A stretch of 64,000 nucleotides of DNA from Candidatus Uhrbacteria bacterium (lineage in GTDB: Bacteria; Patescibacteriota; Patescibacteriia; UBA9934): contig JABHCP010000012.1 of the NCBI GenBank assembly GCA_018673485.1, forward strand, positions 30,393 to 94,392, read 5' to 3'. This document shows, piece by piece, positions 3,683-64,000 of the stretch. Under the pieces are notes generated by a model, which made no database searches, was not told the DNA's origin, and saw nothing but the letters and a program-made list of their open reading frames with translations. Position 1 is the stretch's first letter, and each line of letters opens with the position of its first letter. The position numbers and the translations under genes are program-made.

Positions 3683-3685
3683 ATA

Positions 3686-5241: not shown

Positions 5242-5257
5242 TAGTAATGCGCTAGTT

Positions 5258-7053: not shown

Positions 7054-7156
7054 GACGCTTGTTTCTTGTGACGTAATAATCGCCAGCACAAAACTTCTAT
7101 CATATTTGTAAATGAGGTGCGCTGGACTCATTTATAAAAACAAAAGGAGACTCGTC

Positions 7157-7369: not shown

Positions 7370-7401
7370 ATATACGTCTTTACGTTAGGCGTATCTCAAA
7401 A

Positions 7402-7438
7402 CCCCGTGTCAATTGAATTGACACGGGGCTATTTTTTT
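7402..7438. terminator. Bidirectional rho-independent terminator (ccccgtgtcaattgaattgacacgggg then T-run)
   Basis: 11-bp perfect stem between convergent genes, with A/T runs on both sides. Confidence 0.65.
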
Positions 7439-7448
7439 CAAAATTGAA

Positions 7449-7934: not shown

Positions 7935-7942
7935 AGTGGCTT

Positions 7943-8034
7943 AGAAGATCTCTCGTGGGACTCGAGATGGGGGCGGAGGTATGGTCGAGATGGTGATTGA
8001 CATTATCCATTTCGATGCATCAGAGAAATCTTCT
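7943..8034. repeat. Palindromic dispersed repeat family R2 (AGAAGATCTCTC...CGAGATGG...TTCCATTTCGA...GAGAAATCTTCT), copy 1
   Basis: Shares termini and core with the copies at 26388, 26903 and 58079. Confidence 0.6.
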
Positions 8035-9760
8035 AATAATATTTAGAATACTTGCTTAATATTGTAACATTGTCTGGAAGTTCTTTTAATCTTTTCAGGA
8101 TTTCTTTTCTTTGTTTATTGTCTGTTGTTAGTAGAAATGAGCCTTCTTGTTCAATACATTCATCGCGAATGTCACTTGGAACTAAGTCCAATTTCCCTGA
8201 CATGATGAATTGATCAGCGTATGGAGGAAGTTTATATTGTTCTCTTAGTTCATTTTCTTGTTCAAGAAACGATTCCGAATCCAGCATCGGTTTGATAACT
8301 TTCGGCATCCAGGTTTGAATGATGCATTGCGCTTTATGGTGATGTGCCATGTGCATAATTCGATGCAATCGATACGCAGTTGTGATGGAAGATTCGTAAT
8401 TGTCACCTAGTGATTTCTCCGCCATCAGTTCAACTATTAACTCGAATCTATTTTCCGGAAATGGTTTGTAGATACTTTGAAAGTAGTGCTCGGTGACGAT
8501 TGAAACATCGGCGTTCGAATCAGTTGAGTGCTCTTTGTCAATTACTTGAATTTTCGCATTCGTAAATTTCTTTTGCAGATTGTCAGCGATTTTTTTGTTG
8601 CCAATCCCTCGTGTGCTTAGTGTTTTTTTGTTGCATGCCGGGCATGCCTTTGGTATCCACATTTCCGTTGCGCAAACCGGGCATACGAGATCATCCAAAC
8701 GGACATGAGGTTTTGAGCCGCAACTACCGCACATTGGAATGTGGTGACAGGATCGACACTGTAGATGCTTGGCAACACCCTTGCAGTTGTAGGAAATTAG
8801 CACTTTTTTGCCATTTTGTAAAGCATTAGATATGGCATCGAGTGAAGTTTCAGAAATCAGAGGGATGCCAGTTTTTTCCCTTGAGTCAGCTAGGTTGATG
8901 ATTTGAGCCTCGGCTCTCGGAGTTATGTGTATCGGATCATTTGCTTGTTCTAGTCTTGAAAGCGACCCCACGGTAATGATTTGTGCTTTGTGTTGGTCGG
9001 CGAGCAACTCTGCGGCAAGTCGGGCATTGTAACGAGGGTTACGGCTGTAGCTGACATGATCGTCACTTTGCGGGTCGAATACTATGACCGTATCGATTTT
9101 TTTAGCAGGGATGAGTGAACTTTGTTTTGTACCGATTAGAATCTTTAGGTCTCCGCTTTGCCAATTTTCCATTATCCATCTGCGCCTTGCTATTGAAGTA
9201 TGACCGTGTAGCTTTGCGTGAGGTTTAGATAAAAATTGTGAAATAGTTTCAGCGTCATATTCTCGCGGGCATAAAACAAGAACCTGATTCTTGGCTTTTT
9301 TTACAGCCAAGCTCATTGCCACTATTGAACCCTCAAAGCTTGTCTCGATCGAGCCGCGATTGTCGTTAAGGGATGTTCCAATTATCTTTGCAGTTTCTTT
9401 ATCCATCGATCCTGACTTTGAACCTGACCCGTGTTGTGGCGTTGATTTGGAATGCGTGAGGCCTTGCAAGGCACTTGTAAGTACCGTACTAGGGGACTGC
9501 AGTATTTGCTCTGCGATGAGCTCGAGTCGCTTGATGTCACCTGACGTCATGAACTTTGTGTATCGAATGGATTCGATTGTTTGCAATCGCTTAAACTCAG
9601 ATGTATCGGTAATCCCACGAACAATGCCCGCCACCGATCGACCTTTGAGGGGCATATAGACAAGATCGCCGATTTGCACGTTGAGCTCTTCTGAAATTTT
9701 GTAATCAAAAAACGCAAATCTCCTTGGCAATCGCCTTAATGGAATGATTTGCGCGTACAT
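8033..9760 (-). CDS. priA: Primosomal protein N' (PriA-like) with apparently degenerate helicase ATP-binding motifs
   Basis: N-terminal 3'-DNA-binding-like domain (MYAQIIPLRRLPRRFAFFDYKI...GRSVAGIV) and a C-terminal Cys4 zinc module (CRSC...CGSC...CPVC...CPAC); the expected Walker A GxGKT reads FEGSIVAMS and Walker B reads DPQSDDH. Confidence 0.65.
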   Translation of the reverse strand: MYAQIIPLRRLPRRFAFFDYKISEELNVQIGDLVYMPLKGRSVAGIVRGITDTSEFKRLQTIESIRYTKFMTSGDIKRLELIAEQILQSPSTVLTSALQGLTHSKSTPQHGSGSKSGSMDKETAKIIGTSLNDNRGSIETSFEGSIVAMSLAVKKAKNQVLVLCPREYDAETISQFLSKPHAKLHGHTSIARRRWIMENWQSGDLKILIGTKQSSLIPAKKIDTVIVFDPQSDDHVSYSRNPRYNARLAAELLADQHKAQIITVGSLSRLEQANDPIHITPRAEAQIINLADSREKTGIPLISETSLDAISNALQNGKKVLISYNCKGVAKHLQCRSCHHIPMCGSCGSKPHVRLDDLVCPVCATEMWIPKACPACNKKTLSTRGIGNKKIADNLQKKFTNAKIQVIDKEHSTDSNADVSIVTEHYFQSIYKPFPENRFELIVELMAEKSLGDNYESSITTAYRLHRIMHMAHHHKAQCIIQTWMPKVIKPMLDSESFLEQENELREQYKLPPYADQFIMSGKLDLVPSDIRDECIEQEGSFLLTTDNKQRKEILKRLKELPDNVTILSKYSKYY

Positions 9761-12090: not shown

Positions 12091-12119
12091 TTGACAAACT
12101 TGTCATTTTGTGCTATAGT
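12091..12119 (+). promoter_or_regulatory. Sigma70-like promoter TTGACA-17bp-TATAGT reading into a high-GC locus
   Basis: ttgacaaacttgtcattttgtgctatagt; exact consensus -35 with a 17-bp spacer. Confidence 0.45.
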
Positions 12120-12363
12120 ACTTCTTGTAAGATCAAGCAATTGATCCCTTGCAAACAACTTGAGAGAGCCCTAACTTCTGGGTAAAAGAAGTATCCATCA
12201 ACATCGCTATTGTGGCGTGTTGGTAGAAAGCCGGTTATCTCTCTTAATTAAGAAAGGTAGCCGGTTTTCTTTATAGGTGAGGTAGTCAGACCTGAATAGA
12301 CAATGTCTAAGTAGATCTGACCACCTCGACCACCACCACAAGCCCACCCGGGCTGGAGCCACC

Positions 12364-12444
12364 ATGAACACCATCCTCTCCCTGATCGCCGCCTTCACTT
12401 GCACCGCCGGCCCCGTCGCGCTGATCGCCAGCGTGATGATGTAG
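12364..12444 (+). CDS. Putative 26-aa hydrophobic peptide (MNTILSLIAAFTCTAGPVALIASVMM)
   Basis: Hairpin (agcccacccgggct), GGAGCCACC, ATG; followed by the hairpin cacctgattcgtcaggtg; resembles the signal peptide of the lipoprotein at 12681. Confidence 0.3.
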   Translation: MNTILSLIAAFTCTAGPVALIASVMM

Positions 12445-12680
12445 TCCTCGTGCTACATCGGCCATCTTCTCACCTGATTCGTCAGGTGAGCTACCCCCAA
12501 CCTTTGATCAAGTATCGAAGTTTGAGAGTAGCTCATAGCACTCCTCGAGCATAGGAAAGAGCGCACCTTACATATCTCTCACTCCACTTTTTCCTTTGCT
12601 CAAGGAGCGTATGCGAGTCGAATTTCTCGACCAACACGCAAGAATGACCCCCATCGCCTTCGGGCGAGAGTGAGAACATC

Positions 12681-13196
12681 ATGAACATGACCAACATCCT
12701 GCGCGTCGCCCTGTACTCCCTGATCGCCGCCCTGAGCCTGACCACCACCGGTTGCTTCGACCTGTCGAACGCTGGTGTGGACTGCTACTGGGACAGTGAG
12801 TCCGGCGCCCCCATCTGCGATGTGGGTGTGGGTACCGGCTACGGCAGTGGCAGCGGCAGCTACGAAGACACCGTCTGGGTGATGTGGGAGTCCTCCAAGC
12901 CAGAGCGTTTGACGGACTTCACCATGACGTGCACGTTCGATGACCGTGAGAACGAGAAGTTCTCCATCATCGCTGACGTCTATATCACCGACAGTTACTA
13001 CGTGGATGCCTATTTTCCGGGCGTGCCCAGCCACTTCGATGCAGTGTGCAGTGGTATGGCATACTTCAACGGAGTGGAGATCCCGTTGTTCTCCGGTGAG
13101 GTCCCGACCGGCGACGTCCTAGTCGTTCAGTGGGAAGATGAGCAAGTTGACAATTTCTGGGCTCGTAACAACGAGCTGGATATTGACTACAACTAG
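12681..13196 (+). CDS. Hypothetical lipoprotein encoded in a high-GC locus
   Basis: MNMTNILRVALYSLIAALSLTTTGC lipobox-like signal; hairpin (cgccttcgggcg) about 20 nt upstream of the ATG; GC about 58%. Confidence 0.55.
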   Translation: MNMTNILRVALYSLIAALSLTTTGCFDLSNAGVDCYWDSESGAPICDVGVGTGYGSGSGSYEDTVWVMWESSKPERLTDFTMTCTFDDRENEKFSIIADVYITDSYYVDAYFPGVPSHFDAVCSGMAYFNGVEIPLFSGEVPTGDVLVVQWEDEQVDNFWARNNELDIDYN

Positions 13197-13263
13197 CCTC
13201 ACCATCCAACCCCTCCTTCTCGACCCCCGCATGCCTAGCATCGCGGGGGTTCGACACGTCTAG

Positions 13264-13480: not shown

Positions 13481-13557
13481 TGGTGGACCCTACCGGGCTC
13501 GAACCGGTGACCTCTTGCCTGCCAGGCAAGCGCTCTAGCCAACTGAGCTAAGGGCCC
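13481..13557 (-). tRNA. tRNA-Ala (anticodon GGC), CCA encoded
   Basis: Manual fold: acceptor GGGCCCT/AGGGTCC with a G3:U70 pair; D arm GCTC/GAGC; anticodon loop CUGGCAG; T arm ACCGG-TTCGAGC-CCGGT; discriminator A. Confidence 0.85.
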
Positions 13558-13639: not shown

Positions 13640-14260
13640 ATATAGCAAAGAGCCGCCTGGCAGAGATTGCGAGGAGGCTCAAGGGTGCTCACACCGGCCG
13701 AGTAGGTCATGGCGCACGGCGATCGGTTTGGTGACCGATGTGGGCAGGGCGAACGTGTAGAATATGACCCGTACCAGGCCTTTTCGAAGTCCCACTCCCG
13801 GTTGGGTGTGATTTTTCAAGGCACAGGTCATAAGAGGGTGGCTGCGGAGCGGGTCATGGCCCTCGCTCACACACCTCCACGGCACTTGCAGTACGTCGCA
13901 TCGTTCGATTGCTCCCGGCCCGCACTAATGTTATGGGCTTTGGCGTCGATCGCGTCGTTTGGTAGCGTGGCCTGTTGAGGTGCTTAGGCTGGAGCTCACC
14001 GCTCCGCAGCCTGGTTTGAAAGAGGGGGTTCTCACGCGACGCGCTTCCTCCCTAGTGACTGCTCAGCGTGATTGCTGTGGTGGTACGACAGTTGCCGGAT
14101 CGTCGATCACCCGCCCCGAAAGCCCGGGACTTGCATTTGGACTCTTTCTAACCAAGATTGGTGGCCGTGAAAAGCAGCGTCGACCTGGCAGTCGATACAG
14201 TCCGAATTGCTCGAACCACACTGCGGACGGTCTGTCGCCCTCACGGCCATAGAATGAACT
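13640..14260. other. About 620 bp high-GC segment without a convincing ORF: candidate structured non-coding RNA or decayed foreign cassette
   Basis: GC about 60%, yet only short out-of-phase ORFs of 100 aa or less on either strand; RNase P and tmRNA hallmark motifs were looked for and not found. Confidence 0.3.
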
Positions 14261-14305
14261 TGAGATAATTAAAGCATTGCGCCAGTGAATTGTCAAGAAT
14301 AAGCA

Positions 14306-33289: not shown

Positions 33290-34342
33290 TTATGCGTATG
33301 GTTCATCTGACGTTGATGGTAGAGCGATTTCTCCAAGCAACTTTTGATCTTCAAGCAACGATCCAGTTCCTCGAGCTACGGTAGTTAACGGGTCCTCAGC
33401 AATGTGCACAGGCACCTCGGTTTCCTTAGCAATAATTTGATCAAGTCCGGTGAGCAATGCCCCACCACCACAGAGTGTGATGCCGCGTTCGTAAATGTCG
33501 GCAACAAGCTCAGGGGGAGTCGACTCAAGTGTTGTTTTAATATTTTCAATTATGACCTTGATGGACTTTTGCAGAGCCTCTCTAATCTGACCATCGTTTA
33601 CAATTACTTCTTTTGGAAGACCAGTCATAAGGTCTCGTCCACGCATTTCGATGTCCATTGGTTCCATTCGCGAGACCGCACTTCCAATGCGACACTTCGC
33701 CTGCTCGGAAACCTTATCACCTACTAAAAGGTTGAATACGTCCCGTGTATATTGGGTTATATTCTTTGTCATCTCCTCACCCGCAACCGTTAGTGACTTC
33801 CAAGTTACAATTCCGTTTAGTGATATGACGGCAATCTCAGTTGTACCTCCACCAATATCTACAACCATATTCCCTACCGATTCCGAGATTGGCAACCGTG
33901 CTCCGATTGCAGCGGCCATAGGTTCCTCGATGAGTATTACTTCACGAGCTCCGGCATTGATTACCGCATCCTCTACAGCCTTGCGCTCGACCTCTGTGAT
34001 CTCCAGTGGCACTCCGATAATTATTCGTGGTCGAGGGACAAGAGTAAATGTTTCATCGTGAATTTTATCGATGAAGTACTTGAGCATTTTCTCTGTTACT
34101 TCAAAGTCAGATACCACACCTTTGGTAAGTGGTTTTGATGTACGAATGTGTGGAGGAGTTTTCCCAAGCATGTCTTTAGCGGAATGGCCGACAGCAACTA
34201 TCTGGTTTGTTCGATCATTGATGGCAACGATCGATGGCTCATTAATAACAACACCCTTTCCTTTAACAAAAAGAAGGGTATTTTCTGTTCCCAAATCAAT
34301 ACCAATATCCTCCGAAAATCGACCAAAAAATTTGTTCAACAT
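33290..34342 (-). CDS. mreB: Rod shape-determining actin homologue MreB
   Basis: IGIDLGTENTLLFVKGKGVVINEPSIVAI phosphate-1 motif; 350 aa. Confidence 0.9.
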   Translation of the reverse strand: MLNKFFGRFSEDIGIDLGTENTLLFVKGKGVVINEPSIVAINDRTNQIVAVGHSAKDMLGKTPPHIRTSKPLTKGVVSDFEVTEKMLKYFIDKIHDETFTLVPRPRIIIGVPLEITEVERKAVEDAVINAGAREVILIEEPMAAAIGARLPISESVGNMVVDIGGGTTEIAVISLNGIVTWKSLTVAGEEMTKNITQYTRDVFNLLVGDKVSEQAKCRIGSAVSRMEPMDIEMRGRDLMTGLPKEVIVNDGQIREALQKSIKVIIENIKTTLESTPPELVADIYERGITLCGGGALLTGLDQIIAKETEVPVHIAEDPLTTVARGTGSLLEDQKLLGEIALPSTSDEPYA

Positions 34343-34407
34343 AAGGGCTTACTGAGTCTTTATCTTACTCGATGCCTCATAGTCCTTCAAGGGATCCTGT
34401 GGAATTA

Positions 34408-34815
34408 TTATTCCCCGTGTCTGTGCGCGCTACCCTCAATGGATAGAAAGATGAATTCTAGAATAGAAATCGCTAATATAAATATCAAAAGTGTCACAGT
34501 TGTTAGGTATCCAAGTGCTAGGAGTATGAGCGCCCCTTCAACCAATATTGAAAGAAAAACACCCTGCCTTAGCGAAACCTTGATCACAGACTCAACAGTT
34601 GAGTGCTTTTTTCGCTTCATTCGCACCAAAGTCGCAAGGGATGCAAATATTCCGATCAAAGCCACGAATAGTGTGATGTAGAAAGCTAAGAAGCCAAAAA
34701 GTCCGGCGGTGACTGGATTTATACTAATTAGCACAATTAACCATGCGCATACCGCAATCGCAGTTCCTGAGCAAAGAAATAGTAGATATTGTTTTACTGA
34801 CATAAAATGGTTCAC
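34408..34815 (-). CDS. Hypothetical small membrane protein
   Basis: 135 aa, 3-4 hydrophobic helices. Confidence 0.45.
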   Translation of the reverse strand: MNHFMSVKQYLLFLCSGTAIAVCAWLIVLISINPVTAGLFGFLAFYITLFVALIGIFASLATLVRMKRKKHSTVESVIKVSLRQGVFLSILVEGALILLALGYLTTVTLLIFILAISILEFIFLSIEGSAHRHGE

Positions 34816-34821
34816 TTATTT

Positions 34822-35364
34822 TCACGACCCCATCGTTTCAATTATTGAATTATAATCAATTTTATCGAAGTCACTGGTCTCGATTTTAATTACAGAACCT
34901 GGTAGTTCTAGTGGAGAGAATGATGCCTCACCCGAATAGTCGTTTGATTTTAAGCTTTGTTTGGCTTTTTCAAGATACTGTTCATCACCATGACCAGAGT
35001 GGCGTTCACCTGATTCCAAGCGTTGGATGAATCGTTCGGCCAGAACTTTTGGTTCAGCGTGAAGATATATTTGGATCAGATCGGCTCTGTTATGCTGAGA
35101 TATCTTAATCAAACGTTGAACTTGCTGATCATCGATAAAGTCACTCTCGACGATGCAAGATTGGTCTTCATTTAAAGCTTCCTTAAGATTCTCAAATAGG
35201 TCATCGTAACTTTCTTGAATAAGTGAACCTCTTTCATCCTGATCAAATCGTTTTTCCTTATAGTGATCCAAAGAAAAAATCTGCCAATCTAATAGCTCTG
35301 ATAATTTCTTAGCCACGCCAGTTTTTCCAGTGCACCAGGCCCCGGATATCACAATTATTTTCAT
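34822..35364 (-). CDS. P-loop NTPase, kinase-like
   Basis: Walker A motif ISGAWCTGKTGVA at the N-terminus; 180 aa. Confidence 0.5.
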   Translation of the reverse strand: MKIIVISGAWCTGKTGVAKKLSELLDWQIFSLDHYKEKRFDQDERGSLIQESYDDLFENLKEALNEDQSCIVESDFIDDQQVQRLIKISQHNRADLIQIYLHAEPKVLAERFIQRLESGERHSGHGDEQYLEKAKQSLKSNDYSGEASFSPLELPGSVIKIETSDFDKIDYNSIIETMGS

Positions 35365-35435
35365 ACACCTTTATCATATAAGTGTACCTTGAACAAAATT
35401 CCTATTATAGATTCTATATTCAATATTCAATTCCA

Positions 35436-35834
35436 TTATACCAACGTATCGGCAGAATGATCGAGTGCGTGTGGATCAATCCGAACGTATACCTTTTCAA
35501 TTATTGCGTCAGGTATGCTTTCCTCGATCAATTTTTGAAGTTCTAACCGCATTGAATTGGCTAAGTGCGCCGCGGCTGAGTGTCTGCAAACTATATTCAA
35601 AGTCCTGTGAACACACGAAAGTACTCTGAGGTCTTTACGAAATTTAGCCTCGATTATTTGATCTAAAATAAGGTTTCCTTCGCGAACAACCATAGCAGCC
35701 TTAACTTGTGACCCAATCCCATGTCTTTTCAAAGTAGCAGAAACAAGCGTTCCCATCGGAATCGCATGCTTACGAAACGCCCGATTAGCACGCTGCGGCC
35801 GCCGATACTTATATGTGGATTTGTCCCAGGTCAT
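35436..35834 (-). CDS. DUF721 (DciA-like) family protein
   Basis: C-terminal pattern VLSCVHRTLNIVCRHSAAAHLANSMRLELQKLIEE...KVYVRI resembles DUF721/DciA. Confidence 0.4.
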   Translation of the reverse strand: MTWDKSTYKYRRPQRANRAFRKHAIPMGTLVSATLKRHGIGSQVKAAMVVREGNLILDQIIEAKFRKDLRVLSCVHRTLNIVCRHSAAAHLANSMRLELQKLIEESIPDAIIEKVYVRIDPHALDHSADTLV

Positions 35835-35852
35835 AATTAGATATGGATTGAA

Positions 35853-38828
35853 TTAAAACGAGCTGTCTTCGCAGATGTCTTTGAAGTCGCAGTATTGGCA
35901 GTGGAATCCGGGGGTTGGGCTGAAGTCACTGGCTTGCATCTTCTCTACTGCTTTAATTACTTCATCGATTAGTTTTTGCTTTTCTTTATCTGTTGGTTCA
36001 AAACTCACTGAAGAGTTGTCTTCCAGATAGTGGTAGGTTGCTTTCGTGATCTTGAGTGGTGGATCGAAACACCGTTCACACGCTAGCGCATAAAGCACGA
36101 GTTGCTTGCGTTCAGGCCAGCTGAGCTTATCCTTTGGTTTTCCAGTTTTATAGTCTACGATCTCATATCCATCATCTAGCTTATCGATCCGATCGATTCT
36201 TCCCTTGGTGGAGATGTCACCAATTTTGAGGGTGAAGTCCTTTTCGATGAATGCGATCTTTGGTTTTGTTTCGGTAAGAATATGGTAGTACTCAGACATC
36301 GTGTCCTTACCCTTTTGATGATACTCAACACGTGTCTCAGCGTCAGGATACCACTCATCAATCCAAGCGCTTTCATAAAGCTCAAGTAATCGACTCTCTG
36401 GCGGAATCTCATCTAATCCTCCCTCCTTCCCACCCTTCGATTCCTCAGGGTGCCCTGAGCTTGTCGAATGGGCAAGGGGGGATAGAGGGGGGTTGCCTTC
36501 CACATACTCACGGGCGAATTGTTCGAGTGCGTTGTGCATTGTCTTACCAAAACTCATTTGATAGCGACCAAACACAGGTACGCGCAAGATGTGGGCATAT
36601 TTGTATTGTAATGGACAGCTTGAGAATGCAGCAATCTGCGTGAAGCTGATGTTGCTCGGTAGCTGATGGTCTACTGTAGCTTTCTCATCGATTGGATCGG
36701 CCTGAGGCTCAAGCGATTTGTTTTGACCAGAATCTTGCGCTTCAATCTCAAGTTCTTTAACAAACCGTGATGGTTTGCGTTTGCGGGTACCACCATAGTC
36801 GTCAGCTGAGAAAAGATAGAGATGTTCTTTGGCTCGAGTCATGGCAACATAGAGCAGTCGTCGTTCTTCCTCGATATGTTCATCACGATCTGCGTCGATT
36901 TGAGTGTTGATGAGTCCCTCTGGAATTCCGATTGGACTACTGCGACGTTGTGTTGGGAATCGTTGCTCAACCATGTTTACTAAAAAGACGAATCGAAATT
37001 CTAATCCCTTTGATGCGTGAATAGTCATTATCTGAACCACGTCAGGGCCAGCGGTTGGATCCCCTGAGAGCGCACCGGATTCGCCACTTGATCGCTCATG
37101 TTCGAATTCTTCTAAAAAGTGATGAAGAGTTTTGTCGTCATTTGAATATTCAAAGCGCTTAACGCGTTCAAAGAACTTTTGCAAAAGTCCGTTCTCTTCA
37201 ATTTGTTGTGGTTCTGGCAGTTGCTGTGCCGTGGCGATGATCCCAGTTTGTTTTACGATCTCTACAAATAATTCACTACTTGGTTTTCGTTTTGATAGAG
37301 CCCGCAGTTCTGTCAGCGCTTCGATTATCTCGGTGATTCTTTCGCGACTTGCATCAGATATATCATCGGTTTGCTCTAAAACTTCAAAAAGCGAGAGGCC
37401 CTTCTTTTTACTGTGCATTGAAAGCTTGGCAATGTCGATTTCTGAAATTCCAAGCTCTGGATGGCTTAGAATTCTGTAAATCGAAGGACTGTCATACGGG
37501 AGGTCAATTACGCGCATCCAAGCCAAGCAATCAAGTATTACCGGCTTTGTGTATAGCCCTGAGAGGGCCAGGAAGCGGTATGGCATGCGAATCTGGTCCA
37601 TGATCTCTACAAATGGCTCAGCATGCGAATTTGCGCGAACTAGAATGGCAAAGTCACTCCAATTGCACTCGTGTTCTTTTTGCAGATCAACAATTCTTGA
37701 GATTACTCCATGAAGCTCACTTTGCAGATCATCGGCATGGATATGGTCGACTTTCCCCTCTATTCCAAGGTTTGGCAACAGCTCCTTATTGATTTGCTCG
37801 CGATGTTCAAGTCTGTGTGGATTATTGTTCTGGATTACGTTATACGCGTGGTGCAATACTTTTTCTGAGCTTCTGTAGTTTTGATTGAGAACAATCTGCT
37901 TTGCGTCTGAAAAGTCTTTTGAGAAATTCAAGATATTGGAAAGTGATGCTCCGCGGAATTTGTAAATTGATTGATCGTCGTCCCCCACTACCGTGATATT
38001 GAAAGGTTCTTTAAGCAAGAGTTTGATGAGTTCGTATTGTGCAGAGTTAGTATCCTGAAATTCATCAACAAGCACGAACTTAAATTGTTCCTGATACTGC
38101 CTAGCAATCCGAGGACGCGATCGAAGAAGCTCAATCGTATAACTAACAAGATCTGCAAAATCAAGCGCACTATTTTCAAGCAAGATTTGTTGGTAGGTGT
38201 GATACGCATTAGCGAGCTCATTGATACGCGCATTTTCCTGCTCTTGTTCTTCCGGACTAATCTCATCTCCCTCCTTCCCAAGGGGGGATTCAGGGGGGTT
38301 GCCGTCATTCAAATCAAGATCCTCAGCAAATTTCAAATACTGCTCTGGCGTGATCATCTCATCTTTAATTCGTGAGAAGTGCTGCAAGAGCGCGCGGATA
38401 AACTTAGTTGGATTTGATTTTGGTTTGTAGTAATCAAGTTCAAAACGATCAAAGTTTTTCCTGATCAATAAGTAGGTATCAATCTCATCGAGAAGCGTAA
38501 ATTCATGCGGCACGCCAATATCAAGCGCATGCTGGCGCAAAATCCGCTCACAAAATGCATGAAAGGTTGAGATCCACATGTCCACGTAGCCGATTGGGAG
38601 TAATTGATCGACTCGCTCTTCCATCTCCGTTGCCGCTTTCTCTGTAAAAGTGAGTGCCAAAATCTCCTCAGGCTTCGCCTTCCCCTGCTCAATCAACCAG
38701 GCAATCCGCTGCGTTATAGCAGTAGTCTTCCCAGTCCCCGCCCCCGCAATAATCATAAGCGGCCCCCGATCATGCGTAACAGCCTCCAACTGCGCCTCAT
38801 TTAGATTTTCGAGTAGGTTTTGATTCAT
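35853..38828 (-). CDS. UvrD/PcrA-family helicase fused to a C-terminal PD-(D/E)XK Cas4/AddB-like nuclease with a 4-Cys cluster; carries two in-frame repeat-derived insertions
   Basis: Walker A IIAGAGTGKTTAI; C-terminal CPLQYKY...DRIDKLDDGYEIVDYKTGK...CQYCDFKDIC; encoded peptides GNPPLSPLAHSTSSGHPEESKGGKEGG and GNPPESPLGKEGDE come from repeat R1. Confidence 0.8.
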   Translation of the reverse strand: MNQNLLENLNEAQLEAVTHDRGPLMIIAGAGTGKTTAITQRIAWLIEQGKAKPEEILALTFTEKAATEMEERVDQLLPIGYVDMWISTFHAFCERILRQHALDIGVPHEFTLLDEIDTYLLIRKNFDRFELDYYKPKSNPTKFIRALLQHFSRIKDEMITPEQYLKFAEDLDLNDGNPPESPLGKEGDEISPEEQEQENARINELANAYHTYQQILLENSALDFADLVSYTIELLRSRPRIARQYQEQFKFVLVDEFQDTNSAQYELIKLLLKEPFNITVVGDDDQSIYKFRGASLSNILNFSKDFSDAKQIVLNQNYRSSEKVLHHAYNVIQNNNPHRLEHREQINKELLPNLGIEGKVDHIHADDLQSELHGVISRIVDLQKEHECNWSDFAILVRANSHAEPFVEIMDQIRMPYRFLALSGLYTKPVILDCLAWMRVIDLPYDSPSIYRILSHPELGISEIDIAKLSMHSKKKGLSLFEVLEQTDDISDASRERITEIIEALTELRALSKRKPSSELFVEIVKQTGIIATAQQLPEPQQIEENGLLQKFFERVKRFEYSNDDKTLHHFLEEFEHERSSGESGALSGDPTAGPDVVQIMTIHASKGLEFRFVFLVNMVEQRFPTQRRSSPIGIPEGLINTQIDADRDEHIEEERRLLYVAMTRAKEHLYLFSADDYGGTRKRKPSRFVKELEIEAQDSGQNKSLEPQADPIDEKATVDHQLPSNISFTQIAAFSSCPLQYKYAHILRVPVFGRYQMSFGKTMHNALEQFAREYVEGNPPLSPLAHSTSSGHPEESKGGKEGGLDEIPPESRLLELYESAWIDEWYPDAETRVEYHQKGKDTMSEYYHILTETKPKIAFIEKDFTLKIGDISTKGRIDRIDKLDDGYEIVDYKTGKPKDKLSWPERKQLVLYALACERCFDPPLKITKATYHYLEDNSSVSFEPTDKEKQKLIDEVIKAVEKMQASDFSPTPGFHCQYCDFKDICEDSSF
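36417..36495 (-). repeat. Repeat R1, in-frame intragenic copy (reverse orientation on the window plus strand)
   Basis: Its reverse complement is nearly identical to 17951-18030. Confidence 0.8.
38268..38304 (-). repeat. Short form of R1 (termini only), in-frame intragenic copy
   Basis: Reverse complement is ggcaacccccctgaatccccccttgggaaggaggg. Confidence 0.7.
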
Positions 38829-38838
38829 ATGCTTATAT

Positions 38839-38920
38839 CCTCCCCCTTCCCACCCATCGATATAACTCAGGGTGCCCTGAGCGGAGTCGAATGGGCAAGG
38901 GGGAGTTAGAGGGGGTTGCC
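38839..38920 (-). repeat. Repeat R1, intergenic copy that supplies the GGAGG ribosome-binding site of the helicase gene
   Basis: Minus strand reads ...gggaagggggaggatataagcat-ATG. Confidence 0.8.
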
Positions 38921-38962
38921 TTTAATCTCATTCGATCGAATTATTGGTCTCATTTTACCATA

Positions 38963-38991
38963 ATTGACAAAAGGCCTTTTTAATGATAGAT
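38963..38991 (+). promoter_or_regulatory. Sigma70-like promoter TTGACA-17bp-TAGATT for high-GC cassette A
   Basis: ttgacaaaaggcctttttaatgatagatt. Confidence 0.45.
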
Positions 38992-39057
38992 TTAATCGTC
39001 TTCCAGATACCAACTCGCCCGCAAGGGCATGGGCTTAAAGCCCGAAGGAGGCGTAAG

Positions 39058-39729
39058 ATGCCTCAGTGTACCCCCGAAGGTGCGATCGATCTCGTGGACT
39101 TTATTGGCCACACTCACAAGATGCTCGGTCTCATCGACCCAGTCGGGTTGCCCGAGACCGCCTCGCGTATCGATGACGTTGCACATATCCTGGCTGAGAA
39201 CGGCTGGGAGAATGTGACAGAGATGTTCGAGCGTGCTGTCTTGGATCCAAGTGTGCGTCCGATCGCGCATAATATCGAGATGATGAATACGCACATCGGC
39301 CACAATGGCTACAGTGGCACCTACATGCGGTTGACCAGCGGTGATGGCCGATTCCGTGTGGTGATCGCTCCAAGTGACGTATGTGGTATCGAGACCGGAC
39401 AATGGTGGCTCGCTACTGTGACCATGTACGATGTGTCGGGTCCCTCCAGGTCGGCTGCCGCGTACGCTCACTGTTTCGGCGCCCACTACTGGTACGGCCC
39501 TACACCGCATCAGGTCCGTTGCGAAGCCAATCCTGGTTGCATGGCGATGAAGCTTGAGATCTCGCCGTGGCATACCGATGTGGTCATAGGTAGTGAGGGG
39601 CTCTTCGACCGATTGCGCTCCGACAACTATGGCCGCGAGATTCGCATCATGGCCCGCTGTCTCGGCCGCAACCACTTCGCTCGCAACGGGCCGAATTTCG
39701 ACTTCCTCAGGAATATCGAGTTCGAGTAG
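39058..39729 (+). CDS. Hypothetical protein, high-GC cassette paralogue A (224 aa)
   Basis: Leader is CCCGCAAGG, hairpin (gggcttaaagccc), GAAGGAGGCG, ATG; paralogous to 39930-40577 (shared YMRLTSGDGRFRV / YLRIDSADGRIRV and PHQVRCEANPG / PHQVHCEPNPG). Confidence 0.55.
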   Translation: MPQCTPEGAIDLVDFIGHTHKMLGLIDPVGLPETASRIDDVAHILAENGWENVTEMFERAVLDPSVRPIAHNIEMMNTHIGHNGYSGTYMRLTSGDGRFRVVIAPSDVCGIETGQWWLATVTMYDVSGPSRSAAAYAHCFGAHYWYGPTPHQVRCEANPGCMAMKLEISPWHTDVVIGSEGLFDRLRSDNYGREIRIMARCLGRNHFARNGPNFDFLRNIEFE

Positions 39730-39824
39730 TGATCGCGACTCGCCCCCCCCCGTACGTCTCGAACCCCCACCTCGTGGGGGTTCTTCGTTTTCAGCAAAAA
39801 CATTGCTAATTCTGGCCAAAAGCC

Positions 39825-39853
39825 TTGACAAAAGGGCTTTTTTCTGCTATTGT
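39825..39853 (+). promoter_or_regulatory. Sigma70-like promoter TTGACA-17bp-TATTGT for cassette B (a duplicated copy of the cassette A promoter context)
   Basis: ttgacaaaagggcttttttctgctattgt. Confidence 0.45.
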
Positions 39854-39929
39854 TAGCAGTTCAAAAAGAACACCTGTGTGTGAAACTTCGCCCGTAAGGG
39901 TATGGGCCTAAAGCCCAAAGGAGGCTGTA

Positions 39930-40577
39930 ATGCCTCAGACCGAAGAAAGTCAGGAGTGCATGGGCGTGAGCGAGTTCGTCAACGCTGTTCACATCATGCT
40001 CGCTCTCCCCAAGCTCGATCTGCCTGAGGACGCCAAGAGCGTCGGTGAGATCCAGGAGGTCCTGCTGGAGAACGGCTGGATGGATATCGCGAAACGCCTC
40101 CGACTCACCGTACGTAAGCACGGTGAGTCGGAGCCCGACTACCGGGGTCCGTACCTGCGTATCGACAGCGCCGATGGGCGTATCCGCGTCACGATCAGTG
40201 ACCGGTGCCCTCGCCCGGAAACCAATGACTGGCAGAGGTGGTACGGTGATGTGATGCTGTTCGATATCTCCGACAGCCACCCGTGGCGCCATGATGACCA
40301 GATCCGCAAGTTCGGTTGTCACATGTGGCAGGACGGCCAGCACCCTCACCAGGTCCACTGCGAGCCCAACCCGGGCCAGCGGATCATGTACCTGAGCTTC
40401 TGGCCCAGTAACGTCGTGGCCGTGCCCGACCATGATGTGCAGGATCACTTCAAGTGGGCCCGCTTCCGCAGTCAGTGGGGGCTCTACATGGACCGAATTG
40501 TGAACGTTGTGGGTGAGTACTTCAACGAAGGTGACTCCTACACCGAGGCGTTCCTGAAGTGCACCTCGGTCGAGTAG
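39930..40577 (+). CDS. Hypothetical protein, high-GC cassette paralogue B (215 aa)
   Basis: Leader is CCCGTAAGG, hairpin (gggcctaaagccc), AAAGGAGGC, ATG; followed by hairpin gaacccccacctcgtgggggttc, the same hairpin found after paralogue A. Confidence 0.55.
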   Translation: MPQTEESQECMGVSEFVNAVHIMLALPKLDLPEDAKSVGEIQEVLLENGWMDIAKRLRLTVRKHGESEPDYRGPYLRIDSADGRIRVTISDRCPRPETNDWQRWYGDVMLFDISDSHPWRHDDQIRKFGCHMWQDGQHPHQVHCEPNPGQRIMYLSFWPSNVVAVPDHDVQDHFKWARFRSQWGLYMDRIVNVVGEYFNEGDSYTEAFLKCTSVE

Positions 40578-40636
40578 CTTGCCTCTGACCGATCTTATCT
40601 TGAACCCCCACCTCGTGGGGGTTCTGTGCATCCAAA

Positions 40637-40669
40637 AGAAAACAACCGCCTTGCGACGGTTGTTTTTTG
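40637..40669. terminator. Bidirectional terminator aaaacaaccgcc-ttgcga-cggttgtttttt
   Basis: Stem with A/T runs on both sides, between convergent genes. Confidence 0.6.
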
Positions 40670-40685
40670 TATCAATTAGTGAGCG

Positions 40686-42797
40686 TTACTCGCTTAGTTG
40701 GAATCTGGTTTTCATCATTGCTTTGTCAACGAAATCAGATGTTGCCATATTGTTTCCAATTGAGAATCTGGCAAAGGTTGAAGCGTCTAGGTCGATCACA
40801 TAATCTGCCCAACTAAGTCCGTAGACATTATTGGCTGTGTCCTCGTCTGGTACCCATCGTAAAACATTTCCTTCATCAATTGCGTATACCTTTGGATCTG
40901 ACTGAATTTTCACTAAGACTGATCCTGGCTGTGGAAGCATTGGGTCACCCATTTCGAGCGTAGAGAGTGTTGCATCAGTTACCCAGCTTACCTCGTCAAA
41001 TGAATCAGCGTAGGAGAAAAATGCATTCGTGTCCCAGAAAGGTCGTCGTTTTCCGTCTTCATCAACAAAGTAGATTGAGTTGAATGAGCTTGATCGGATG
41101 AATTGACCTTTAGTGATAGTTGAGATATCTTCCTCTTCCCCTGTGACTGGGGAGAACCCTTTATCACCCGTGTATTCTGCAAAGTTTGGCCCCGATGCCG
41201 AATCTTCACTTGTTGATTCTTCCGCACCGTCAGGAGAAAATACTCCCTCAAGACAATTGTCCGTTTCATCACTTTCGGTAACGGTTTCATTTGCATCAAC
41301 GCAAACCTTGATTGTAGAAGTCTCTGTGAGTCGCTGTGGTGTGATTACGAATTCGCCACCCGCGATTGTAGCTCCAGCAGTTGGTAATGTAGCTGTAGAG
41401 TAGTGCCATTCGCGTATGCCATTTATCCAAAAAGTGATATCAAATTCAGATACATTTGCACTTCCCGTGTTTGTAACCGTTGCTTTAATAAGGTCTGTAT
41501 AAGGATTGTTTCCTGGATCATCGCCAATTTCCAAGCTACTCAAGGTGAGGTTCGTGTCAGATTCTGAGCCTGTCGTTGTTTCTTCAGCTTCTGTTGCAGT
41601 TCCCTCTGTGTATTTATAAAGCCCCATGTAGCCAATTTCACCTTCTCGACATACCGCGTAAAGCTCGTCATCTGCAAATATAATAGAATAATACATTGAG
41701 CTTGGCTCTGTGAATTCTGAAGATCCTACAGTGTTCCAGTCTGATCCGTCATACATTTCGACCGTTGAGCTATATTCTGAACCCGTTCCTGTGTCTCCGT
41801 AGATTAAGAAAAGCTCATTGTCAGAATTTCTTGCAAATTGCGTGCCTGTATTTCCAGAGGTGTAGTGATTTTCAATGGAACCATTTCCAAGAGTTTCCCA
41901 TGTATCTGTTGATCTTGTGTACCGATATAGTTCCATTCCATACGCGTAAAGATCAAATCCATCCTGATTTGCCGACATGTAATAGTCGTTGAGCGTTGAC
42001 TCAAATGGCCCATAAAGTAGTGAGCTCCATCCGCTTTCACCTAGAACATATGCGCTGGTGTTGTATTCCACCGTGCAGCTGCCAGTTGTGCACTCCCCGT
42101 CTCCTGCGATATTCATGATTAGATATATTTCACCATTATCATCGATATCAAACTGCATCTCTCCAATGCTTGAGTAATACGGCCAAAGTGCATATTCCCA
42201 GCCGTCATTTTCGTTTCCATCAACATCTGTTGAGGTGTTGCCTGTATAGGCATGAATCATCGTGGACGGAGTGTCTGAGGTATGTCCTCCGTTTGCATCG
42301 TCAATATAGACAAGATAAACCGTATCATCTGGCGCTATCGCGAATTGTAGGTTTACGGGGTATTCGTCTTCTATTGCAACACCATAGCTTCCAAGGTTTC
42401 CAACATCGTCCCAAGAGCTCCCATTGTATTTTTGAACATAGACTCCCCCCTCGTGATAATAGCTAATATAAAGCTCATCACTTGAATTTACAGCGAGTTT
42501 AATATCATCATATCCGCCATCTAGATCAATATTTTGCAGTGACGTGACAGCGCCGTCTTCATATTTCTCAATACTAATCCACATATCATGAACTACATAG
42601 TCCGCAATCGATGTACCGGTTCGGTCATACTCGATAAAGGATGTGTAGATGACCCCTTCGCTGTCGGTCACGATAGATGAGTGGGTCGATGGATTGCTAG
42701 ACAGTGTTTCCATTTTTTGCCAATCTGATGTGGCATTAGCCATCCCCGGCCCTAGCACGAGGGTTAGGAGCGAAAGAAAGAATATTTTTTTCATCAT
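40686..42797 (-). CDS. Large hypothetical secreted protein (703 aa)
   Basis: MMKKIFFLSLLTLVLGPGMANA signal peptide; Asp/Tyr/Gly-rich repetitive beta-type composition. Confidence 0.55.
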   Translation of the reverse strand: MMKKIFFLSLLTLVLGPGMANATSDWQKMETLSSNPSTHSSIVTDSEGVIYTSFIEYDRTGTSIADYVVHDMWISIEKYEDGAVTSLQNIDLDGGYDDIKLAVNSSDELYISYYHEGGVYVQKYNGSSWDDVGNLGSYGVAIEDEYPVNLQFAIAPDDTVYLVYIDDANGGHTSDTPSTMIHAYTGNTSTDVDGNENDGWEYALWPYYSSIGEMQFDIDDNGEIYLIMNIAGDGECTTGSCTVEYNTSAYVLGESGWSSLLYGPFESTLNDYYMSANQDGFDLYAYGMELYRYTRSTDTWETLGNGSIENHYTSGNTGTQFARNSDNELFLIYGDTGTGSEYSSTVEMYDGSDWNTVGSSEFTEPSSMYYSIIFADDELYAVCREGEIGYMGLYKYTEGTATEAEETTTGSESDTNLTLSSLEIGDDPGNNPYTDLIKATVTNTGSANVSEFDITFWINGIREWHYSTATLPTAGATIAGGEFVITPQRLTETSTIKVCVDANETVTESDETDNCLEGVFSPDGAEESTSEDSASGPNFAEYTGDKGFSPVTGEEEDISTITKGQFIRSSSFNSIYFVDEDGKRRPFWDTNAFFSYADSFDEVSWVTDATLSTLEMGDPMLPQPGSVLVKIQSDPKVYAIDEGNVLRWVPDEDTANNVYGLSWADYVIDLDASTFARFSIGNNMATSDFVDKAMMKTRFQLSE

Positions 42798-43007
42798 ACT
42801 GTTTATTTAATTATAATAATTATTTGTTTTTTTAGAAGATCTCAGATGATCTGAGGCCTTTGCGTACAACCATCATACCAGCAATGATATTTTTTAAATA
42901 TATAGTTTTCCACAGATCATTCTAATAAAAAAAACAACCGCTGATTAATCCAGTAGATCCCTCGACGTTGCTCGGGATGACGGATTAGTTGGCGGTTGTT
43001 TTTTTGT

Positions 43008-43415
43008 TTATTCGATTTCTGCGATTGTTACTATGTTGTTCTCGTCAATCTCTGCGAGAGCCATTACAACTTTCAATCCATTGTACTTACCTTCCAAAAT
43101 TACTTTTGACTTCTCCATCTGTTCGATCTGGAACGCGTGCTCAGCCTCTATTCCAGCAAATGCTGAATGTCCGCCGTATCCTCCGCAATCCATGTGATGC
43201 ATGATAATCAGTGTATCGATTAAGTGCAGTCGTTTTGAAATGTCGATCTGTGTTGCGACGAATCCCTCGGGATCTTCTATGAGATCTTTGGTAGCTCCGG
43301 CAACAGAGATGATATCGCAATTGTTAACGATTCCATTATTTTCTAAATACTCTTCGATGGCTGACTCTAGACGAAAGTCCATGCAACGGACGAGAGCGTG
43401 TGTACATTGGCTCAT
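43008..43415 (-). CDS. Minimal beta-class carbonic anhydrase-like protein (tentative)
   Basis: CxDxR (RCMDFR) and HxxCG (HHMDCGG) zinc-ligand motifs in the expected order, but only 135 aa. Confidence 0.35.
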   Translation of the reverse strand: MSQCTHALVRCMDFRLESAIEEYLENNGIVNNCDIISVAGATKDLIEDPEGFVATQIDISKRLHLIDTLIIMHHMDCGGYGGHSAFAGIEAEHAFQIEQMEKSKVILEGKYNGLKVVMALAEIDENNIVTIAEIE

Positions 43416-43420
43416 ATGAT

Positions 43421-43510
43421 TGTTTAATTTGTTTAAATGTTTAAAGTGTTTACTTCGAAGTAAACAATTTCAACAAGTGAGGGCAGCGCCCGAACGATTA
43501 GACACTTTAA
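43421..43510. repeat. Repeat family R4, long copy
   Basis: gtttaaatgtttaaagtgtttacttcgaagtaaacaatttcaacaagtgagggcagcgcccgaacgattagacactttaaacc. Confidence 0.55.
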
Positions 43511-43944
43511 ACCTTCCTTCCTACATCGCGATACTTTCCTTTGGAAGCAACTTTGTGTCGCGCCATTTCACGTTCCAGGTGAACGAGTGCGTCGGCGTAG
43601 GCGACGTCACTTTGATCGCGCGCTTCTTCTAGTCGTTTTTGAGCAAGATCTCTTGCTTTCTCGATCTCCTCAATCGCTAGCTCGTCAGAACGCTCAGCAG
43701 TATCTGCTAGAATTATCACTTCGTTGTTAGGTCGAACCTCTATCAATCCGGTCGAAACCGCGAGCAATGATTGGTCTTTACCGTCTTTGAGCCGCATCTC
43801 ACCAGCACGTAGGAGTGAGACTAGTGGAATGTGGTTTGATAGAATTGTGATTTCTCCATTTTCTGTCATTACAGAAATCGAATCAACCGAGTCCTCAAAA
43901 ACGACACGCTCTGGAGTTACAATTTTTAGGTTTATTTTTATCAT
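43507..43944 (-). CDS. atpC: F-type ATP synthase subunit epsilon
   Basis: MIKINLKIVTPERVVFEDSVDSISVMTENGEITILSNHIPL... epsilon fold; last gene of the atp operon. Confidence 0.8.
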   Translation of the reverse strand: MIKINLKIVTPERVVFEDSVDSISVMTENGEITILSNHIPLVSLLRAGEMRLKDGKDQSLLAVSTGLIEVRPNNEVIILADTAERSDELAIEEIEKARDLAQKRLEEARDQSDVAYADALVHLEREMARHKVASKGKYRDVGRKV

Positions 43945-44088
43945 AGTGATTGCTTTGGAATGTATACGCTCAACACACACACCATCTCGAAGGCCGGAGG
44001 CCGAGAGATCCCGTTGTTTGAGCGATGTCCACAGTTATACTGCGGGATCCTTCGGTAGGACCTCAGGATGACGGCTGATGGAACAAAA

Positions 44089-45477
<1,389 letters not shown>

Positions 45478-51783: not shown

Positions 51784-51857
51784 TGGCGCCGATGGCAGGA
51801 ATTGAACCTGCGACCCCCTGCTCGACGGCAGGTGCTCTATCACTGAGCTACATCGGC
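51784..51857 (-). tRNA. tRNA-Asp(GUC)-like gene with an apparent 6-nt anticodon loop
   Basis: Acceptor GCCGATG/CATCGGC, D arm GCTC/GAGC, T arm GCAGG-TTCAATT-CCTGC, discriminator G, CCA encoded; anticodon stem CCTGC/GCAGG encloses CGTCGA. Confidence 0.55.
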
Positions 51858-51871
51858 TAAGGAGTGAGAAA

Positions 51872-51984
51872 TGGCTCTGGGGGCTGGATTTGAACCAACG
51901 ACTTCCTGCGTGATGGTAGGTGAACTAACCAGTTGTTCTACCGGCTTGGCAAACAGGCGAGCTAACCAACTGCTCTACCCCAGA
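51872..51984 (-). tRNA. 113-nt tRNA-like gene: canonical acceptor, D and T arms, with about 36 extra nt in the anticodon region (candidate tRNA-Gly(GCC) carrying an insertion or intron, or a disrupted tRNA)
   Basis: 5' TCTGGGG-TA-GAGC-AGTTGGTTA-GCTC-G-CCTGT-TTGCCA[36 nt]C-GCAGG-AAGTC-GTTGG-TTCAAAT-CCAGC-CCCCAGA-G-CCA; removing 51911-51946 gives a 77-nt cloverleaf with loop UUGCCAC. Confidence 0.45.
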
Positions 51985-63389: not shown

Positions 63390-63418
63390 TTGACATATTG
63401 TACTGAGGTTGCTAATCT
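63390..63418 (+). promoter_or_regulatory. Sigma70-like promoter TTGACA-17bp-TAATCT upstream of a high-GC H+-PPase gene
   Basis: ttgacatattgtactgaggttgctaatct. Confidence 0.45.
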
Positions 63419-63504
63419 TTCCGCGCCTTTCGCAGAAATGAAGCGGAGGGGGAATGAACCCATGAATGTCTAACCTTCCTGGTAGACAAGAGGAGAAGTA
63501 CGTT

Positions 63505-64000
63505 ATGCAGAACTTTGCATACCTTGTGCCCGCAGCGGGTATCTTGGCGTTGATCTACGCCTTCATCAAGACCCAGTGGATCAACAGGCAAGATCCGGGT
63601 GACGCGAAGATGCAGGAGATCGGTCTGGCTATCCGTGAAGGAGCCATGGCCTTCCTGGCCACTGAGTACAAGGTCCTCGCGATCTTCGTCGCGGTGGTCG
63701 CGGTCCTCCTGGGCGTCGTCAACTTCATGCAGATCGGTCCGTCGGCATCGTTCGTTTCGTTGTCCTTTGTCGTCGGTGCAGGCTGCTCTGGCTTGGCTGG
63801 CTTCATCGGGATGCGAGTGGCTACTGCCGCCAACGTTCGTACCACGGCTGCAGCTCGCACCAGCCTTCCCGACGCTCTCCAGGTCGCCTTCTCCGGCGGC
63901 GCTGTCATGGGCATGTCCGTGGTCGGTTTGGCACTGCTCGGGCTCGGTGGTCTCTACCTGCTCTACATCGCCATGTTCGGTGGTGGTCCCGAGGCCGATC
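63505..64000 (+). CDS. hppA: Membrane-bound proton-translocating pyrophosphatase (H+-PPase), 5' part; continues beyond the window
   Basis: AGGAGAAG ribosome-binding site; translation [67 protein letters not shown]... matches the HppA N-terminus; GC about 62%; reading frame open to the window end; the minus-strand ORF 63555-63914 is its antisense artefact. Confidence 0.75.

Follow-up and report, generated by a model that had tools for sequence, protein, structure and literature searches.

Morons of phages, in the concept of Hendrix and Juhala, are insertions between otherwise adjacent genes that deviate in G+C content (GC) and carry a promoter and a terminator of their own (PMC2920897). The subject of this report is a two-gene cassette of similar layout, located at positions 38963-40669 of a 64,000-nt stretch (hereafter the window) of a metagenome-assembled genome of Candidatus Uhrbacteria (Patescibacteria, also Candidate Phyla Radiation, CPR). 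Gene A (39058-39729, plus strand, NCBI HN358_00925) encodes a cytoplasmic orphan protein of 223 amino acids (aa), the orthologue of protein P0003 of a sister locus. Gene B (39930-40577, plus strand, NCBI HN358_00930) encodes a more diverged paralogue of 215 aa. Like a moron, the cassette is inserted between genes that are adjacent in relatives (outgroup loci L016, L017 and L032) and deviates in GC from its surroundings (57% and 60% vs 43.6%). As to a promoter and a terminator of their own, both genes show consensus matches to a promoter and a hairpin, the hairpin of copy B lacking a T-run. The insertion point behaves as a hot spot, with different open reading frames (ORFs) in different genomes. 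Unlike a moron, the cassette lies in the housekeeping chromosome, with no prophage, no viral relatives and no PHROG match; it is GC-richer, not AT-richer, than its surroundings, and it is a tandem duplicate with conserved regulatory blocks. By this comparison the units appear to resemble morons in their working but are not members of the moron class.

Acquired genes and orphans are usually AT-richer than the genome in which they reside. Genes A and B are much GC-richer than theirs. With taxonomically restricted orphan genes of plastic genome regions and with horizontally acquired genes of Patescibacteria (PMC12455944) they share the narrow clade, the atypical composition, the rapid divergence and the variable neighbourhood. 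From a classical genomic island the cassette differs in having no integrase, no tRNA within 11 kb and no flanking direct repeats. Integron cassettes are likewise arranged in tandem, with one gene per unit and, at the end of each, a conserved repeat that can form a hairpin. However, the hairpin found here, (T/C)GAAC...GTTCT(T/G), does not have the RYYYAAC and GTTRRRY cores, as a G precedes AAC and pyrimidines follow GTT. Each unit also has its own promoter-like site, whereas integron cassettes are mostly promoterless, and there is no intI or attI nearby. A type II toxin-antitoxin pair differs from the present arrangement as well, in that A and B are paralogues and stand 200 nt apart with a terminator and a second promoter between them.

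The reading preferred here, which is held with about as much doubt as belief, is that A and B are old tandem duplicates of an acquired, lineage-restricted and fast-diverging accessory family that resides in a plastic slot, with its regulatory blocks conserved. All features listed by an earlier note, made from the letters of this DNA alone, were found where the note had placed them. The cassette is flanked by housekeeping chromosome (uvrD-like helicase, ATP synthase, MreB/PBP2). It is reproduced by at least eight independent assemblies with 99.97-100% identity, one of which covers 33973-44792, i.e., the whole cassette; because of this agreement the locus is not an assembly artefact. The remaining contigs with the cassette represent one clone (99.97-100% identity) and thus hold no strain polymorphism usable for the ratio of nonsynonymous to synonymous substitution rates (dN/dS). 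In contig L008 (ENA ERZ23491648, 911 bp) gene B is 100% identical, and the sequence upstream of its -10 box consists of 138 nt of unrelated AT-rich DNA (L008 1-138) with no match among the sequences collected for the analysis. L008 is either a chimeric contig or shows gene B in another context in another strain. The locus was compared with the sister Uhrbacteria loci L001 and L015 (CAYVLY010000001) and with the outgroup loci L016, L017, L019, L020 and L032.

The products of A and B are acidic, cytoplasmic proteins of about 220 aa without a signal peptide. They share 34% identity over 183 aa (BLASTP, E 3e-21), which bears out the paralogy claimed in the earlier note; their identity to P0003 is 33% for A and 25% for B. 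The content of His, Trp and Cys, in which both proteins had been called rich, is indeed 2 to 3.5 times the window average; Arg is enriched and Lys depleted. An exhaustive hidden Markov model (HMM) search of 1.84 billion cluster representatives yielded a family of three proteins at E<=1e-3, namely A, B and P0003 (229 aa, E 5e-19). Word-indexed searches of 5.8 billion clusters returned the same three proteins only. The public proteins covered amount to about 15 billion predicted proteins. The statement that the proteins match no recognised family also stands: Pfam, NCBIfam, PHROGs and PADLOC gave sub-threshold noise only for both, and the PDB gave no match at E<=10 by sequence or by profile. A tblastn search against phages and plasmids found no relatives of A or B, and a scan of viral contigs for protein relatives, the hairpin and the leader core found none. 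Of the two protein checks that had been recommended, the HMM search thus delivered a family of A, B and P0003, and structure prediction delivered AlphaFold models with a predicted local distance difference test score (pLDDT) of 37 and 34, too low for a meaningful comparison of folds.

The plus strand is the coding strand, because the homology to P0003 is seen at the protein level (E 2e-33) without detectable DNA similarity, because identity by codon position follows the order pos2 > pos1 > pos3 (0.57, 0.48, 0.30) and because the antisense ORFs are unconserved. These long antisense ORFs, at 38992-39831 and 39861-40631, are both absent from the orthologue. They were ruled out as true genes, being by-products of a high GC at third codon positions (GC3) that are not conserved in the P0003 locus, with a codon-position pattern in favour of the plus strand. 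The start of gene A at 39058 is preferred over an upstream ATG at 38983 on account of a strong Shine-Dalgarno sequence and of the N-terminus MPQ found in all three family members. In some assemblies the gene callers report a 248-aa form of A (38983-39729) that starts at this ATG within the promoter, and over gene B they annotate the 256-aa antisense ORF (39861-40631) instead of B. Within the coding sequence of gene B, at 40098-40133, CTCCGACTCACCGT ... ACGGTGAGTCGGAG form a perfect inverted repeat of 14 bp around a loop of 8 nt. It falls where B is shorter than A and is unexpected in about 650 nt.

Units A and B align in four blocks only: promoter, leader, hairpin and weak coding patches. The leader together with the first codons is 85% identical over 52 nt, the hairpin matches in 27/28 nt and the coding patches are 64-70% identical, while the spacers from the -10 box to P1 (the first leader hairpin) and from the stop codon to the terminal hairpin no longer align. 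Promoter, leader, ORF and terminator are all repeated in order, and the proposal that they were duplicated as one module is upheld. The duplication is old, not recent, because the coding sequences are about 49% identical at the nucleotide level (aligned codons) and the spacers are unalignable. The near-identical regulatory blocks therefore seem to be conserved or homogenised, not freshly copied; they may have been kept by selection, by short-tract gene conversion or by both. The hairpin, identical within the window genome (23/23) but different in L001 and L015, hints at gene conversion.

Consensus promoter sites of the type TTGACA-17 bp-TAnnnT are present at both genes, as had been noted, each with a TG extended -10 and a 10/12 consensus match. 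The predicted promoter A (38964-38992, plus strand) is TTGACA-17-TAGATT and the predicted promoter B (39825-39853, plus strand) is TTGACA-17-TATTGT; the two are 84% identical over 25 nt. The divergent uvrD-like gene has its own putative extended -10 (reverse complement of 38951-38962) back-to-back with promoter A.

Leader A (39016-39064, plus strand) folds into P1 (GCCC-GCAA-GGGC, 39017-39028), P2 (GGGCU-UAA-AGCCC, 39031-39043) and P3 (39048-39064), the last pairing GAGGCGU with AUGCCUC across the start codon; the Shine-Dalgarno sequence AAGGAGG is located at 39045-39051. Leader B (39889-39936, plus strand) has P1 GCCC-GUAA-GGGU, P2 GGGC-CUAAA-GCCC, the same Shine-Dalgarno sequence AAGGAGG and P3 GAGGC/GCCUC. 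The near-identity of the two leaders was confirmed: 39016-39052 and 39889-39925 agree in 33/37 positions and are the sole two matches in 64 kb (<=3 mismatches, 0 expected). A third leader is present in L015. All three fold into P1, P2 and P3, with a P1 loop of the GNRA type in A and B, and the covariance model built from them scores 82 bits (A), 77 bits (B) and 68.9 bits (L015). P3 pairs GAGG(C/UC) with the start-codon region, and L015 retains P3 via a compensatory C-G to U-A change. No further copy was found with the covariance model in 548 kb of related DNA, and a scan of genome contigs for leader and hairpin gave 0 matches. Metagenomes scanned for the leader pattern returned the same strain only, plus three chance matches; these lie in the CtsR/McsA coding junction of gut Firmicutes and were rejected as non-homologous.

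Like 5' untranslated regions (UTRs) that occlude the Shine-Dalgarno sequence (RNA thermometers, small translational riboswitches), the leader is short and structured, and in its last hairpin the Shine-Dalgarno region is base-paired with that of the start codon. Unlike them, it has no Rfam match, is represented by three examples only and has a predicted occlusion within the native range. Rfam gave no match over the P1-P2 hairpins in either leader; a weak match to CRISPR-DR16, below threshold, lies at the Shine-Dalgarno/start region of gene B (39921-39936, E 7.1), and other weak matches fall on terminators. A riboswitch or thermometer with unusually tight translational gating was rejected in view of the missing Rfam match, the thin covariation and a Shine-Dalgarno accessibility within the native range. 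The leader is treated here as a putative conserved 5' UTR element, not as a demonstrated translational switch.

The hairpin GAACCCCCACCTCGTGGGGGTTC occurs at 39761-39783 and again at 40602-40624 (23/23 identical, 0 expected by chance). The claim that both genes end with the same hairpin holds for the hairpin itself; as a terminator it holds for copy A, which alone has a T-run behind it. Terminator A (39761-39793, plus strand) is a predicted intrinsic terminator made of the 10-bp GC-rich hairpin (39761-39783) and the following TTCGTTTTCA. Hairpin B (40602-40624, plus strand) is the second copy of the 23-nt hairpin, with no T-run behind. A bidirectional terminator, AAAACAACCGcCTTGCGaCGGTTGTTTT, follows at 40639-40666 (no strand assigned). 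It is common to the gene B side and a convergent gene for a 703-aa protein, closes the slot on the right and has an orthologous counterpart in L001 and a partly orthologous one in L015.

The slot is located between the divergent uvrD/PD-(D/E)XK helicase gene and an operon of Pro_CA_2 and F-type ATP synthase. On contigs L001-L005 P0003 occupies the same slot: the uvrD-like gene diverges from it, Pro_CA_2 and the F-type ATP synthase operon follow downstream, and the flanking genes are 73-79% identical to those of the window at the nucleotide level. UvrD identity is 85-86% between any two of the window, L001 and L015 and falls to 75-77% against L016 and L032. A check for presence or absence in relatives, recommended by the earlier note, found the slot occupied in the window, L001 and L015 and empty in the outgroups (L016, L017, L019, L020 and L032), where Pro_CA_2 directly abuts uvrD. 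The window, L001 and L015 have orthologous boundaries on both sides of the slot: on the left a ATTTTACCA(C/T)A block (an extended -10 for uvrD in reverse complement), and on the right the bidirectional terminator AAAACA..CG..TGTTTT. With these boundaries shared by three sister genomes and no insert in the outgroups, the locus itself is inherited.

What fills the slot varies from genome to genome. In the window it holds A and B plus an additional 703-aa CARDB surface protein; in L001, P0003 is the only occupant. The L015 slot contains a promoter of the form TTGACA-17-TATAAT, a homologous leader (85% over 41 nt), a 145-aa ORF and a GGGGGTTC hairpin. The frame of this ORF is open by chance in 0.3% of shuffles, and its product is a singleton in the protein collection searched. 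Against the A family hhalign gave a probability of 0.1, and tblastx and blastn found nothing; a hidden homologue (frameshifted or antisense) was ruled out by the same three tools. A is 33% identical to P0003 while the adjacent UvrD is 86% identical, i.e., the slot family evolves far faster than its neighbours. A and P0003 share the N-terminus and the position, as orthologues would. The most parsimonious history starts from a common ancestor with the leader and an A-type gene; in it, L001 later replaced the leader and L015 replaced the ORF.

Between gene B and Pro_CA_2 stands the 703-aa gene (40686-42797, minus strand), which has a normal GC and encodes a secreted protein with a CARDB domain (E 3e-9). 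Neither L001 nor L015 has it; a gene whose composition is native-like has thus been added to the slot as well. In L015 the place of Pro_CA_2 and the F-type operon, as found in the window and L001, is taken by a complete V/A-type ATPase operon (750-9281), and the breakpoint of this swap is within the bidirectional terminator of the slot. Eight of the loci (L015, L019, L020, L021, L027, L030, L031, L034) are labelled 'uncultured Gammaproteobacteria bacterium'; their UvrD is up to 86% identical to that of the window genome and their synteny is of the Patescibacteria type, and the labels look wrong.

The region has a GC of 56.6% (gene A 57.3%, gene B 60.2%) against 43.6% in the rest of the window; the background is thus about 44%, not about 38% as had been estimated. 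GC3 is 0.69 in A (z +3.2) and 0.80 in B (z +4.4) vs 0.41 +/- 0.09, and codon adaptation to the neighbours has a z of -2.7 for A and -3.4 for B. When GC, GC3 and codon adaptation were computed against the flanking genes, as the earlier note had advised, A and B were clearly distinct, and the foreign composition is upheld. The other slot ORFs are GC3-enriched relative to the neighbours in their own genomes as well (z +3.5 for P0003, +3.1 for the L015 ORF). The size of the excess differs by lineage, with a GC3 of 0.69-0.80 in the window genes and 0.45 in L001. GC at second codon positions (GC2) and Lys/Arg usage are shifted too, including in P0003; GC-rich ancestry is therefore favoured over a purely synonymous effect.

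Under the preferred reading, that of old duplicates of an acquired family, the slot would have received a self-contained unit in the ancestor shared by the three sister genomes. This unit would consist of a strong extended -10 promoter of the sigma-70 type, a 60-70-nt 5' UTR with three hairpins and a strong Shine-Dalgarno sequence, an ORF and a GC-rich hairpin terminator. Its source would be a pool of genes richer in GC, for which other Patescibacteria, or unsampled mobile elements of theirs, are the most plausible candidates. The GC of related Patescibacteria loci ranges from 34% to 67%, with GC-rich relatives up to 57-67%, and most detectable gene transfers into Patescibacteria are reported to come from other Patescibacteria (PMC12455944); a GC-rich Patescibacteria donor pool is therefore a plausible candidate. 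Duplication of the unit in the window lineage would have followed; selection and/or short-tract gene conversion would then have kept the regulatory blocks unchanged as the proteins diverged. Each gene would be expressed singly, as a monocistronic, moron-like accessory unit. A role in conflict or interaction (immunity- or defence-like) is guessed to be the most likely class because of the rapid divergence, the duplication, the taxonomic restriction and the plastic locus.

Several points weigh against this reading. A unit as old as the three-way split should have had its GC3 of 0.7-0.8 erased here by neutral drift, a decay that is partly seen in L001 (0.45); the reading thus requires that the unit was replaced later or that some local force maintains the high GC. 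A lone old acquisition followed by neutral drift does not explain the difference in GC3 between the lineages. The reading also does not account for the identity of the hairpins within the genome or for the same leader in front of the unrelated L015 ORF. The promoters are AT-rich and native-looking, and promoters and terminators are consensus predictions. Support for the leader structure is thin (three sequences, one compensatory pair, matched by 142/500 shuffles), and the predicted occlusion of the Shine-Dalgarno sequence is not above that of native genes in the window. The AlphaFold models were built from alignments of two and three sequences and leave the function unconstrained. The protein, phage, plasmid and viral searches gave no donor lineage and no homologue outside the clade.

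In another reading the conserved promoter-leader and the GGGGGTTC hairpin would be the ends of a mobile, moron-like family that delivered differing cargo to one hot spot, repeatedly and independently in each lineage, with A and B as two separate insertions instead of an in-place duplication. We regard such exchangeable cassettes as an unlikely but serious alternative. In L015, ends of the same kind enclose an unrelated ORF, the slot ORFs of all three genomes are GC3-enriched whatever their homology, and a recent arrival would agree with the high GC3 of A and B. In L008 gene B follows a different upstream sequence, although that short contig may be chimeric, and the neighbourhood is plastic, with the 703-aa gene in the window only and the F-type operon replaced by a V-type ATPase operon in L015. 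However, the mobility suggested by the earlier note was not borne out. There are no flanking direct repeats at the cassette, no recombinase or integrase within about 10 kb (syntenic gene tables) and no attC-like core sites when the sequence is read directly, and phage, plasmid and viral relatives were not found. Repeated delivery is also not seen in the further DNA scanned (no additional leader in 548 kb of related DNA; metagenomes with the same strain and chance coding matches only), and the N-terminus and position shared by A and P0003 are orthologue-like.

Somewhat less likely again is a native, fast-evolving gene family that arose in the clade or has long been resident there, its high GC being made locally and not due to foreign ancestry. 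Possible causes would be selection on the mRNA or else gene conversion with a GC bias, acting either from one tandem copy to the other or at a hot spot of recombination. The GC3 excess is a property of the slot in three genomes, even in the unrelated L015 ORF, and is largest in the genome with two tandem copies. Recombination acts next door (the ATPase operon swap and the insertion of the 703-aa gene), no donor was found, and the hairpin identity of 23/23 within the genome, set against divergent orthologous hairpins, suggests gene conversion. On the other hand, GC2 and the Lys-poor, Arg-rich usage are shifted even in P0003, whose GC3 has mostly decayed, which points to GC-rich ancestry; unrelated single-copy units of the window (see below) have the same composition, including the gene for a H+-translocating pyrophosphatase (H+-PPase); and the coding sequences of A and B are now too diverged to recombine with each other.

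An 'expression socket' without an integrase is quite improbable. Here the conserved promoter, the new three-hairpin leader RNA and the 3' hairpin would form a scaffold for unrelated GC-rich ORFs swapped between Patescibacteria via recombination at the ends, and all GC-rich units with the same promoter would be its products. Capture of the genes from the bacterial host of an episymbiont is very improbable. The high GC and the atypical codon usage alone speak for it, while there is no homologue in any other organism among the roughly 15 billion predicted proteins, and the orthologue stands at a syntenic position in a sister Uhrbacteria genome. The exhaustive profile searches found only A, B and the orthologue in the sister Uhrbacteria, and the label 'host-derived' in the earlier note was not borne out. 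An artefact, i.e., a chimeric assembly or GC-rich non-coding DNA with ORFs open by chance, is practically excluded: long ORFs on both strands of high-GC DNA and the disagreement of gene callers on the strand of B would fit it, but the junctions recur in the independent assemblies, and the protein homology to P0003, the coding-type codon-position pattern and the unconserved antisense ORFs do not.

The window contains further GC-rich units. The pattern TTGAC[AT]-N13-16-TGnTAnnnT has six sites in 64 kb, five of which head GC-rich units, namely A, B and the three described next; these units end in similar CCCC...GGGG(G)TT hairpins. One unit extends from 5241 to about 3700 on the minus strand, with a promoter TTGACA-17-TATTCT plus TG (5241-5213) and a hairpin-rich leader. 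Its two orphan ORFs (4608-5120, GC3 0.80; 3855-4457, GC3 0.59; both minus strand) both start with MKRT and have signal-peptide-like N-termini; they remain below any Pfam family threshold. The terminal hairpin, near 3740, is CCCCACCTAGTTGGGG. A lipoprotein unit (12091-13260, plus strand) has a promoter TTGACA-17-TATAGT plus TG, a long leader, a hydrophobic mini-ORF of 26 aa (12365-12445), an orphan of 171 aa that resembles a lipoprotein (12681-13196, GC3 0.79) and a hairpin at 13222-13252, and it adjoins a tRNA-Ala (13481-13557). The H+-PPase gene (PF03030, E 8e-42) starts at 63505 in the region 63390-64000 (plus strand, GC 61%, GC3 0.76), has the same promoter type and is cut by the end of the window. 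As a recognisable gene among the GC-rich units it is a good candidate for tracing the donor lineage. The set of units is functionally mixed, which fits an acquired accessory gene pool, not one system.

Beside the tRNA-Ala lie about 650 nt of GC-rich DNA (13640-14285) with no ORF >97 aa and no Rfam match. In a comparison with shuffled sequences the folding of this segment has a z of -3.2 on the minus strand (0/20 shuffles as good) and of -1.7 on the plus strand. The segment may represent a structured RNA not yet described, or else the decayed remains of a GC-rich unit. At 51784-51984 (minus strand) two adjacent tRNA matches were obtained with Rfam, one at 51787-51857 and an unusually long one of 110 nt at 51875-51984. 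ARAGORN reported the first tRNA only, with an undetermined two-base anticodon. These tRNAs may contain introns or be otherwise atypical.

CPR genomes are tiny, and close relatives differ largely by uncharacterised accessory genes. The locus described here is a clean, well-bounded case of this kind: an insertion slot, three sister genomes with differing contents and a unique protein family, in which the regulatory blocks are conserved far better than the proteins they control. It presents a new orphan family and an evolutionary case, a lead rather than a discovery, in which a new mechanism is not demonstrated. With at least five GC-rich units in 64 kb, predicted to be strongly promoted, the window offers a handle for cataloguing acquired genes in CPR-type genomes, and the set of units would allow donors, recombination-driven GC bias and selection to be tested against each other.

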